In this document: one piece after another, positions 2,005 to 5,038 of the stretch
Position numbering within the stretch: position 1 is the stretch's first letter
Layout of the letters: the number at the start of each line of letters is the position of its first letter
Virus record (IMG/VR): IMGVR_UViG_2657245448_000004
Source of the DNA: a virus
Taxonomy: Duplodnaviria > Heunggongvirae > Uroviricota > Caudoviricetes
Direction: 5' to 3' (one strand)
Length of the DNA: 22,461 nucleotides
Program-made: the position numbers and the translations under genes
Notes under the pieces: generated by a model
Databases searched by the model: none
The model's input: only the letters and a program-made list of their open reading frames with translations
What the model was told of the DNA's origin: nothing

Positions 2005-2907
2005 TTAACCCTCCAGTGCTTTTTCAGCCAGGGTGATTACTTCAGCGAGATTTTCATCCGTTACTTCACCAAGTTTCCTGGCTCCCTGTTTTTCCAGAAT
2101 TGCAATAGCTTCTGCCCGGTAACCCCCTTTTGCTAACTGGAGGATCAACCCTTCAGCTTGTTTGCGTAGTGCCGCGAAATCAATTGTATGGTCATCTTTG
2201 GCGTCATTATTCTGGCTGGAATTTGCTGTGTCTCTGCGTGCAAATTCTTCCTGCAGCTGAAGGTACTCAACACGGTTGGTCTCGATATGGCCTTTTTTCA
2301 GCATCTCGTTCAACTTGCGTAAGGTGTGGAGTTCACTGGCTGCTGTGCCGGATACATTTTTGACGTAAAACGGCCCCGTGCGTTCTCCATCTTTGTTACT
2401 GGCCTTTTTCGGCTTAACTTCATCACGCCCATCCGCAGGTGCATCAAGTAGCTGCTCGGCAAAAGCACGTCGCTCGCCGATGGTTGGCAGGTCGTCCCAG
2501 AACTTAAGGATGTTACGGGACAGGTCCAGGAGAGCAGGTTTAAGCAGCGCCCTGGCTCGTTTGACGCCCTGCAATGCGCTGTCGAGAGCATCAATCTGAA
2601 CTACTCGTTTATCGCCTTCAGCATCACGGTAGGCAACAGCACGTTGCAGCATGTCTTCTGTGATAGGGGTGGCTACTGGGTAGAAACCAGCCAGTGCGAT
2701 AACGTCGCTGAACTCCAGATCATCCAGTGTCATTGCCGCTGACATATTTTCAGTTTCAGTTGCTGTATCCCGACATTCCTGCACTCGTGAAATCGTGTCA
2801 GGATGCATAACAATACCTGATGCCATTGTGCGGATAAGACGTTCAAGCAGCGCATTATGTTGTGCCAGAAGTTGATTATTAAGTTCGAGACTGGTTTCTA
2901 AACTCAT
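2005..2907 (-). CDS. hypothetical early-left operon protein (function not recognised)
   Basis: 300-aa ORF tightly packed between the small membrane ORF (ATGA overlap) and the nuclease gene. Charged, helical-looking composition; no motif I can name. Confidence 0.55.
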
Positions 2908-3074
2908 ACTGTGGTCCTCGCTACAAGGAGAATGAAAGTGATGATCAGACCGAGCGCAGTGGCAACGGCCAGACCGGTCATCAAATCGAAGTTTTTACGG
3001 CGATAACGGAGAACATCGCGCCCCGTCAGTCGATAGAGGTGTTCAGGTTTCATCGGTTGTATTCCTTTTTTCAT
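2904..3074 (-). CDS. small membrane protein (56 aa), first gene of the early-left operon
   Basis: Not in the ORF track (under 60 aa). Hand translation of the minus strand: [56 protein letters not shown], with one hydrophobic C-terminal helix. Its TGA stop overlaps the ATG of the 2005..2907 gene, suggesting translational coupling. Confidence 0.45.
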   Translation of the reverse strand: MKKGIQPMKPEHLYRLTGRDVLRYRRKNFDLMTGLAVATALGLIITFILLVARTTV

Positions 3075-3110
3075 ATCGGGGAGCGCGCTGTTGCGAGTGC
3101 GCTTTCAGAC

Positions 3111-3138
3111 ATAAAAAAGCCCGTCATTTGCGGCGGGC
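3111..3138 (-). terminator. putative intrinsic terminator (minus strand) upstream of the early-left operon
   Basis: Hairpin GCCCG...CGGGC at 3119..3138, followed on the minus strand by a 6-nt U-run (plus-strand A-run 3113..3118). Confidence 0.4.
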
Positions 3139-3277
3139 AAAGACTACACACAGCAATTACATGGATATCATCGAGTGCCTGCTTTTAACCACATCAGGCG
3201 AGGTGGTTCTCCTTGTACCCCTACAGTGAGAAATCGTCTAATATCTCTTCACCCCTACAGTTTGAGAGAGATTAGAT

Positions 3278-3847
3278 ATGTCTGAAGAAAAAGGAATTCT
3301 TTCCCGGATAACTGAATCGTTATCCGGCGTGGGAGGAGCAATTAAAGGCGCGGTTGGAGCAGCAAGAGAGATTCAGAATCTGACTGTCGACTATGCAGTT
3401 AAAGAGAAGACGCACACCTTACTCGATAAGCTAATGGATGTTCAGATGCAGCAAATGTCGCTTCAGGAGCTGCTGATTGCGGCTAAGGAGAAAATTGTTG
3501 AACTGGAAAATGAGAAAGTAAAGCAAGAGAACTGGGCCGCTGAAGCGGCGAGCTATGAACTTTACCAGCCTATGCGGGGTACTCTGGTCTATCGCAGCAA
3601 GCTTTCTGCAGATACTGACCAATCTCCGGTTTATATTTGTCCCAATTGCTACGAGCAAAAGAGAAAATCTATATTGCAAGCGGAAGGTCTGGTTATTAAG
3701 CCAGGCCTTGGGCGAGCCGTTAATATGGTTTGTTCGCACTGTAGGGCTTCCTATCTGTTCAACCGAAATGCTTTAGAGGCCAGACTGCCTGCTGAAGATG
3801 AAAATCCGGGGAAGGCAATCACGGATTACGATCCTTACAACCAGTAA
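3278..3847 (+). CDS. hypothetical protein: Gly-rich N-terminus, coiled-coil, C-terminal zinc-ribbon-like CxxC...CxxC; candidate accessory/defence gene
   Basis: 189-aa ORF with a GA-rich SD-like stretch (GAGAGAGA) just upstream of the ATG. Heptad-like charged segment around residues 40-90; CPNC at residues 121-124 and CSHC at 152-155. Opposite strand to both neighbours and convergent with the repressor gene. Confidence 0.75.
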   Translation: MSEEKGILSRITESLSGVGGAIKGAVGAAREIQNLTVDYAVKEKTHTLLDKLMDVQMQQMSLQELLIAAKEKIVELENEKVKQENWAAEAASYELYQPMRGTLVYRSKLSADTDQSPVYICPNCYEQKRKSILQAEGLVIKPGLGRAVNMVCSHCRASYLFNRNALEARLPAEDENPGKAITDYDPYNQ

Positions 3848-3896: not shown

Positions 3897-3925
3897 AGCG
3901 CCCCATCGTCGGGGCGTTTCAACTT
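3897..3925 (+). terminator. putative intrinsic terminator for the 3278..3847 gene
   Basis: 6 to 8-bp GC-rich stem (cgcccc / ggggcg, loop atcgtc) followed by TTTC, about 50 nt after the stop codon. Confidence 0.4.
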
Positions 3926-4154
3926 GCGTGACTTATCAGTTCGTCGCGGTGTTGTCCTCTACGCTTACCGTACGCATACGGACTCGGCGCTTACCTCGAT
4001 CCCATCGGGTGCCATTTCATTTTGCCAGGAGTACTGCGGCTTACCTGTCACGCGGTTCAGTTTGTTAAAGAGCTGGTATTAAAAAACGCATTAATTATGC
4101 GGTATCGTATTTATATGCGTTATGGGATTTTGCGTCAATACGAAAATGAATTAT

Positions 4155-4192
4155 TTTGCAAATAAGAAAACCGCCCTTGTGGAGAGCGGTTT
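4155..4192 (-). terminator. putative intrinsic terminator downstream of the repressor gene
   Basis: Stem aaaccgc / gcggttt (4168..4174 with 4186..4192), 11-nt loop, followed on the minus strand by a T-rich tract (TTTCTTATTT); about 30 nt past the repressor stop. Confidence 0.45.
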
Positions 4193-4897: not shown

Positions 4898-5038
4898 TTG
4901 GATTCATCCATGTTGTATACAGGGACGGTGATTATGCGTTATCGGATATTTTAATCCAGGATGATATAGAATTGCCGTATTGCTGAATAATCCGTTTTCG
5001 TATAAATTTGCGCTATAGACGAAAGTGGAGACTTAAAT
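4898..5038. promoter_or_regulatory. immunity switch region with divergent promoters and operator-like repeats
   Basis: 141-bp AT-rich gap between the divergent repressor and Cro-like genes. Similar motifs TATAGAATTGCCGTAT (about 4964..4980) and TATAAATTTGCGCTAT (about 5001..5017); SD GGAG at 5027..5030 ahead of the Cro ATG. Exact -35/-10 elements not resolved. Confidence 0.5.

Follow-up and report, generated by a model that had tools for sequence, protein, structure and literature searches.

Here we describe a small gene on the minus strand of a 22,461-nucleotide stretch of DNA from a virus of the class Caudoviricetes (IMG/VR record IMGVR_UViG_2657245448_000004; "the window" below means this whole stretch), which is a real, early and probably antitermination-dependent gene for a small, predicted tail-anchored protein made together with the product of the next gene, a member of the protein family phrog_6784. 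As to function, our tentative preference is for a role as the membrane-anchored partner of this co-translated protein and of the replication/recombination module that the two genes precede, a possibility that we would still put well short of probable. An earlier note, written from the sequence, had described an unannotated membrane protein of 56 aa at this place, coupled to the early-left operon, and had proposed it as a candidate toxic or regulatory peptide of the Kil type. The open reading frame (ORF) is present as claimed at 2904..3074 on the minus strand, where it counts 56 codons from its first ATG (3074); several other parts of that description are revised below.

Reading frame, start codon and annotation

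By length alone the ORF would be unremarkable, given that 67 frames of 30 aa or longer fall at least partly in the first 7 kb of the window, and it is conservation that makes it more than a chance occurrence. The carrier loci that we compared comprise the window, 2 annotated records, 5 contigs with distant homologues and 79 IMG/VR contigs, 87 in total. A comparison with related prophages had been proposed in the earlier note as one check on the gene, which loss of the frame would have refuted; the frame proved to be kept in 87 of 87 loci, at a length of 47-49 codons and in 39 distinct nucleotide versions. The ratio of non-synonymous to synonymous divergence (dN/dS, Nei-Gojobori) is 0.31 overall, 0.18 in codons 1-20 and 0.35 in the hydrophobic part. 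Ratios above 1 are found for both alternative sense frames and for two of the antisense frames, and three of these four contain stops in every version. The remaining antisense frame, whose third positions coincide with those of the gene, has the expected identical ratio, yet it is broken in 20 of 34 versions. Non-synonymous divergence (pN) is 0.067 in the small ORF versus 0.114 in the adjoining 300-aa gene, measured over the same 67 loci.

Any sequence contains many ORFs as short as this one, but a chance origin is vanishingly improbable for one whose frame is intact in all the carrier loci and in 153 E. coli genomes, whose substitutions are frame-specific, whose Shine-Dalgarno (SD) sequence is conserved and whose products form a hidden Markov model family with four cluster representatives at 50% identity; on the evidence of this conservation, that reading is already refuted.

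The same loci point to a later start codon. No SD sequence accompanies the first ATG, which is out of frame, mutated or absent in most relatives; in the great majority of upstream variants the second, at 3053, is preceded at a distance of 7-9 nt by AAGGA or AGGAG. Where homologues have been annotated from a start of their own, their length is 46-49 aa, the few longer database entries being partial or mis-started and differing among themselves in the sequence upstream of MKPEH. The profile of PHROG 11981 aligns over all of its positions (1-49 of 49; E=1.4e-36, 125 bits) with residues 8-56 only of the 56-aa form. Since SD sequence, relatives' starts, homologue lengths and PHROG alignment all favour the second ATG, we take that codon as the true start and the gene as 2904..3053, encoding 49 aa and not 56. 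The longer reading of the earlier note was rejected, the seven-codon extension not being conserved.

Nor is the gene unannotated, except in the ORF list that the earlier note had worked from. RefSeq (WP_000801676.1) and GenBank (URC08720.1) hold the identical protein, each as a gene of 150 nt from the second ATG under the name "hypothetical protein", and phrog_11981, the same family as the window protein, is listed as of unknown function. Of 5426 complete E. coli genomes, 153 contain the whole 150-nt gene, and in a sample of 30 records taken from along the ranking it is annotated in each. A comparison over 2.3 kb showed 100% identity between the window and vB_EcoM-606R2 (ON470579), an induced E. 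coli phage, as well as prophages in many E. coli chromosomes. A literature search on these phages returned nothing.

Predicted topology, relatives and the coupled gene pair

The most conserved part of the protein is its N-terminal 22 residues (MKPEHLhRLTGRDVLRyRRK), with M1, K2, P3, E4, L9, T10, D13, V14 and R18 invariant in the A1/A2 alignment, and with five Arg and two Lys among the first 20 residues. Residues 24-45, in the numbering of the 49-aa form, make up an uncharged stretch of 22 with a Kyte-Doolittle 19-residue mean of 2.56 (2.3-2.9 across five family members); its sequence drifts yet stays uncharged and hydrophobic in all homologues, and is followed by another 3-4 residues (4 in the window). 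A net charge of +2 to +4 on the N side (+4 in the window) against +1 on the C side favours, by the positive-inside rule, an orientation with the N-terminus inside. AlphaFold2 (AF2) models a single long helix over residues 11-48, with a mean predicted local distance difference test score (pLDDT) of 82.5. A single hydrophobic helix at the extreme C-terminus, a polar and basic N-terminus and the lack of a signal sequence, all as predicted, give the protein the layout expected of a tail-anchored protein of the inner membrane whose N-terminus is cytoplasmic. The single C-terminal transmembrane (TM) helix and basic N-terminus described in the earlier note are thus borne out by hydropathy, charge distribution and the AF2 model, and a real gene for a small membrane protein is supported by frame conservation and predicted topology together.

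On present sequence evidence the family is restricted to prophages of Enterobacterales. A word-indexed search gave 52 clusters, all from this order and including E. coli, E. albertii, Salmonella, Citrobacter, Enterobacter, Edwardsiella and Trabulsiella, and a profile search of 1.84 billion representative proteins gave four true family representatives, its other matches being repeats or low-complexity sequence. The small protein had no match in Pfam at E<=1 and none in PADLOC, one non-significant match in NCBIfam, far below the cut-off of the model, and only non-significant matches in a sequence search of the PDB, among which there was no related solved structure.

A sister family consists of 44-aa proteins (P0179-P0198) from prophages of Serratia and other Enterobacterales, such as MNSLKQMQHRHRVTGADFHTPKTRGLLYPLVLLCVAFSILYLAR, with the layout MNSLKQMQHRHRVTGADFHTPKTRG followed by a TM helix that ends in AR. 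It was not found by HMMER from the window family; hhalign of the two families (A2, the window family, versus A8, the Serratia type) gave a probability of 89% and E=2e-6. Like the window protein, the Serratia-type proteins have the HR[LV]TGxD motif, a C-terminal TM helix and an ending of the form ...F(I/L)LLVAR, which in some members is ...TTFILLVAR, exactly as in the window. They also share its size and its position in the locus, upstream of DUF2800, just before a phrog_6784-like or DUF7666 gene and, where examined, after an RprA-like terminator. Unlike the window protein they lack the KPEHL start and the basic LRYRRK stretch, and in L213-L215 the gene lies 3 nt from the next one, with no overlap.

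More distant modules, on contig L120 and on the Sodalis contig L091, have an ORF of 43-47 aa in the same position (in L120 one of 47 aa, starting 109 nt after the RprA-like core; in L091 at 3361-3492). These ORFs contain KPDHL and LRYLRKR-like strings and a conserved ...RNPNA(H/K)F..TLYI ending, have no TM helix and are followed by a domain-permuted phrog_6784-like protein. As judged from these strings they may encode a soluble relative of the window protein, for which hhalign gives a probability of homology of 1-4%. A genome-wide species scan with the 300-aa neighbour returned 3 loci only and was useful only for the Sodalis variant.

The stop/start overlap on which the earlier note had based translational coupling is confirmed among the carrier loci, with ATGA in 80 of the 87 and TAATG in another 4. 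Codons 40-46 vary by just two synonymous forms of codon 44 among 34 distinct versions. The overlap, together with a ribosome-binding site inside the last codons, argues that the small protein and the phrog_6784 protein are made together. A weak hairpin is predicted at the junction, with UCUCC pairing with GGAGA-like SD bases; it was dropped as an SD-sequestering structure, being no more stable than shuffled sequence. No -1 frameshift slippery heptamer joining the small ORF to the next gene was seen on reading the sequence, no dedicated search having been made.

Beyond the pair the gene order is constant, with extra genes sometimes in between: small ORF, phrog_6784 gene of about 300 codons, DUF2800 nuclease of the PD-(D/E)XK type, single-stranded DNA-binding protein (SSB) of the Enc34/gp2.5 type, and DNA polymerase A (PolA). 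This order recurs with different immunity regions, leader types and virion genes, the latter being a baseplate/myovirus set in the window and including a T7-type head-tail connector in L003 and L005, and it is kept in the Serratia-type family. In L006 a DUF7666 gene follows the small ORF and is itself followed directly by a phrog_6784 homologue; in L137 such a homologue is found somewhere on the contig. The 300-aa phrog_6784 protein had no match in Pfam or in a sequence search of the PDB, and its AF2 model, of moderate quality (mean pLDDT 66), found no PDB match with E<1 by Foldseek. The position at the head of a leftward early operon, also claimed in the earlier note, is supported, and the phage has a cI/cro/Q regulatory layout.

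Leader, terminator and neighbouring features

A region that is probably, from its sequence, the OL/PL of the leftward early operon lies about 1 kb upstream of the first gene, just downstream of the cI terminator. Operator-like repeats are common to this region and to the cI-cro intergenic region (4933-5003), and a promoter-like site, TTGACG-17-TATAAA, is found at 4138..4110 on the minus strand, although a consensus promoter scan did not call it. A 47-aa plus-strand ORF annotated in GenBank at 4022-4165, overlapping the OL/PL-like region, looks spurious.

An exact rrn-type boxA, GCTCTTTAACAA, is located at 4073..4062 (minus strand), about 35 nt beyond the promoter-like site. With it goes a stretch of about 170 nt that is conserved behind at least 4 different promoter/operator regions and has a predicted long-range closing helix, a GC-rich hairpin and a few compensatory changes. 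This boxA leader is present in 51 of the 87 loci and a put-type sequence motif in 30, at the same position and never together; their mutual exclusion suggests that the boxA leader is also an antitermination element, and hence a candidate new cis-acting RNA. The put-type leader of L003 has 83% identity over 57 nt to putL of HK022 and to the annotated putL sites of HK75, O276 and HK639. In the relatives L003 and L006 the arrangement is that of the HK022 PL-putL operon, with a leader of this identity to HK022 putL before the same small ORF and terminators after the leader; the window differs in having the unrelated boxA-containing leader at the putL position. For the boxA leader, Rfam gave nothing that reached the gathering threshold, and none of the named phages beyond its own group had a match.

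Closer to the gene lies a module that resembles the 3' part of RprA, an Hfq-dependent small RNA (sRNA) of the host. Shaped like an intrinsic terminator, it leaves 60 nt between its end and the start codon of the small ORF. Against Rfam RF00034, the RprA family, it scores 50.2 bits (E about 1e-5) where the gathering score is 70, and in an alignment with K-12 rprA only the 3' ~47-50 nt match the consensus, the 5' half being unrelated. The matching part corresponds to a processed 47-nt form of RprA that is itself regulatory (PMC9262595). Of 85 loci, 79 have such a terminator at a distance of 19-91 nt before the ORF. More than 120 IMG/VR contigs, representing several unrelated phage contexts, contain the exact 21-nt core; the small ORF does not follow in 72 of 121 occurrences, and the 5' flank of chromosomal rprA is present in none, which argues that the element is a general phage module. 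Early transcripts that terminate at this element could yield an sRNA mimicking RprA. Within the window, the sole match to the complement of the RprA-like seed is the element itself, so that no target site was found there, and no paper describing phage-borne RprA-like RNAs was found in the literature.

The second conserved hairpin, between terminator and SD sequence, shows covariation at one pair (columns 61:80), which is G-C in 7 sequences and A-U in 6. The U-tract of the terminator can also pair with an A-rich stretch before the SD sequence, a pairing without covariation.

A gene of family phrog_1244 is inserted between leader and operon. It is in the opposite orientation, and PL transcripts would therefore cross it antisense. 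Just upstream of it an 11-nt direct repeat, ACCCCTACAGT, occurs twice (3217-3227 and 3251-3261). In the E. albertii relative L006 the long leader contains a tRNA-like T-arm, GCGGGTTCGAATCCCGC (L006:5100-5180), and the terminator is separated from the small ORF by a 173-aa ORF (L006:5474-5995), the N-terminus of which resembles a fragment of a sliding clamp. At the other end of the module, L213-L215 and L006 have variable inserts between the SSB and PolA genes, including SIR2_2, Band_7, HNH, Nmad5 and TerB-like genes, and in ON470579 PolA is followed by a TIR-like gene that the window does not reach; the inserts look like defence or counter-defence cargo in a replication operon.

Table 1. Coordinates of the small gene and of the features around it in the window.
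Feature	Position	Strand	Basis or remark
Coding sequence, 49 aa	2904..3053	minus	RefSeq WP_000801676.1; PHROG phrog_11981; intact in 87/87 carrier loci
Seven-codon extension from the first ATG	3054..3074	minus	5' untranslated region, outside the conserved gene
Shine-Dalgarno sequence AAGGA	3063..3067	minus	read from sequence; 9 nt 5' of the ATG at 3053
Codons 1-22, conserved basic N-terminal peptide, predicted cytoplasmic	2988..3053	minus	alignment, dN/dS, HR[LV]TGxD motif
Codons 24-45, predicted TM helix	2919..2984	minus	hydropathy, charge distribution, AF2 pLDDT 89-97 there
Near-invariant block TTCATTCTCCTTGTAGCGAGG	2916..2936	minus	codons V44-A45-R46 double as the SD sequence of the next gene (GAGG)
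ATGA stop/start overlap	2904..2907	minus	TGA 2906..2904; ATG of the next gene 2907..2905
Coupled downstream gene, 300 aa, phrog_6784, unknown function	2005..2907	minus	PHROG match
Second conserved hairpin, between terminator and SD sequence	3082..3103	minus	RNAalifold
RprA-like 3' module: AATTGCTGTGTGTAGTCTTTGCCC, hairpin, T6	3113..3158	minus	Rfam RF00034; weaker match up to 3222
189-aa gene, phrog_1244	3278..3847	plus	weak zinc-ribbon matches; inserted between leader and operon
Operon leader: boxA, then ~170-nt structured stretch	3899..4073	minus	conserved among relatives
OL/PL-like region: operator-like repeats (D1, I1) and promoter-like site	4087..4165	minus	repeats, sequence

Possible roles of the protein

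Under the reading that we tentatively favour, transcription would begin at the repressor-controlled PL-like promoter about 1 kb upstream, and the transcript would pass a leader of the boxA type (the putL antiterminator RNA in relatives). It would then have to read through the RprA-like intrinsic terminator 60 nt before the start codon, and the protein would be made only after induction or infection, a timing that we infer from the sequence. The 49-aa protein and the phrog_6784 protein, made together, would then serve as a membrane anchor or organiser for the DUF2800 nuclease, the Enc34-type SSB and DNA polymerase A. We favour the partner role because the gene pair is conserved over a large divergence, because the two genes are coupled and because the cytoplasmic peptide is the conserved part of the protein; that the peptide itself matters is indicated by the HR[LV]TGxD motif, which both families retain in spite of drift in the TM sequence.

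Several points weigh against this reading. The interaction with the phrog_6784 protein is one that we infer, and this neighbour has no recognisable fold or domain; the timing of expression, as said, is likewise deduced. The kept gene order could reflect vertical inheritance of the block as a whole. Synonymous divergence in the small ORF, at 0.20 versus 0.47 in the neighbour over the same 67 loci, is less than half, and part of the conservation must therefore act at the nucleotide level. Codons 1-4, 9-12 and 40-46 are invariant or nearly so at that level, and of these blocks only codons 40-46 are explained, by the downstream ribosome-binding site; no iterons, repeats or composition shifts, looked for as signs of an origin or DNA site behind the low synonymous rate, were found inside the ORF. 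Finally, if the L120 and Sodalis ORFs are homologous after all, on what is a weak match, membrane anchoring would not be essential.

An analogy may be drawn, as a hypothesis and with respect to the proposed role only, with p16.7 of phage phi29, a small, early membrane protein encoded with replication genes that organises phage DNA replication at the membrane. That protein has about 130 aa, an N-terminal TM helix and a DNA-binding domain; the window protein shows no sequence relationship to it and matched no solved structure. A bolder version of the partner role, which we consider unlikely, would make the window family and its 44-aa sister family a new tail-anchored class that places the nuclease/SSB/PolA machine at the inner membrane with the phrog_6784 protein, with synthesis gated by read-through of the RprA copy, such that one transcript would give an RprA mimic when terminated and the membrane protein plus replication genes when antiterminated.

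The chief alternative, to which we give slightly less weight than to the partner role, is the one raised in the earlier note: a Kil-like host effector that, soon after lytic growth begins, would enter the inner membrane and block a host process such as division or envelope synthesis, or else depolarise the membrane, independently of its phage neighbours. The gene does lie in a leftward early operon beside recombination-type genes, as lambda kil does; its product is small and predicted to be membrane-targeted, the conserved cytoplasmic peptide might bind a target in the host, and the place of the gene behind a terminator would fit a product not to be made in lysogens. The proposal gains no support from the databases, however, there being no similarity to Kil, DicB, Hok or other toxin families in Pfam or PHROGs, where phrog_11981 is the only match, and nothing significant in NCBIfam or PADLOC. 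Moreover, host-takeover accessory genes of lambdoid phages are usually mosaic and dispensable, whereas here the position is fixed across divergent modules and the gene is more conserved than its neighbour; a gene so strictly linked to the replication/recombination module is more readily seen as one of its components than as an independent accessory gene for killing the host. Lambda Kil, DicB and KilR are likewise small products of an early operon that also carries recombination-type genes. They are soluble, whereas the window protein is predicted to be membrane-anchored, and neither Pfam nor PHROGs place it in their families. With type I toxins (Hok/Gef, TisB, Ldr) it shares no Pfam or NCBIfam toxin family; within 2900-3080 the opposite strand showed no promoter-like site for an antisense antitoxin RNA, the protein has its TM helix at the C-terminus, and its gene opens a long operon.

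That the ORF is a coupling device only, loading ribosomes for the next gene and preventing Rho-dependent polarity by way of a peptide without function, is improbable. The ATGA overlap with the downstream SD sequence embedded in the last codons, the depressed synonymous divergence and the weak SD-sequestering hairpin predicted at the junction would all suit it. The peptide is under purifying selection, however, with the low N-terminal dN/dS of 0.18 accompanied by synonymous changes at R8, D13, V14, R16, R19 and D23; the helix stays hydrophobic despite sequence change, the motif persists in two families whose DNA sequences differ, and the hairpin is no more stable than shuffles.

A superinfection-exclusion or injection-blocking function has a similarly low probability. 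Several exclusion proteins are, like this one, small inner-membrane phage proteins, but their genes are normally expressed from the prophage, whereas the present gene stands behind a repressor-controlled promoter region and an intrinsic terminator. It travels, besides, with the replication genes and not with the variable immunity region, and PADLOC offered no match.

Still less probable is an arginine-rich, RNA-binding regulator like N, whose basic N-terminus would bind leader RNA and aid antitermination. Its position is analogous to that of N after nutL, and the basic residues at the N-terminus and the exact boxA upstream would be in keeping with this; yet the ORF lies downstream of the very terminator that would need suppression, the same gene is found in relatives with the protein-independent putL RNA, the remainder of the protein is a TM helix that leaves no region to contact NusA or RNA polymerase, and the sister family lacks the basic LRYRRK stretch. 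The protein does not belong, on these grounds, with the lambda N-type antiterminators.

The feature is an uncharacterised member of a familiar kind, the small early membrane proteins of phages, and with the gene already in RefSeq and PHROGs the gain is modest. What the present work adds is a corrected start, a firm case from sequence conservation for expression as a protein, and the hypothesis of a partner of the replication module in place of a stand-alone killer. Should the pairing with phrog_6784 be true, it would matter more, since the two genes head a replication/recombination module that is found, in its E. coli version, in about 3% of the complete genomes of that species. The RprA-like and boxA RNA elements upstream are more unusual than the ORF itself, and bear on the way in which temperate phages gate early transcription, possibly by tapping host sRNA networks.

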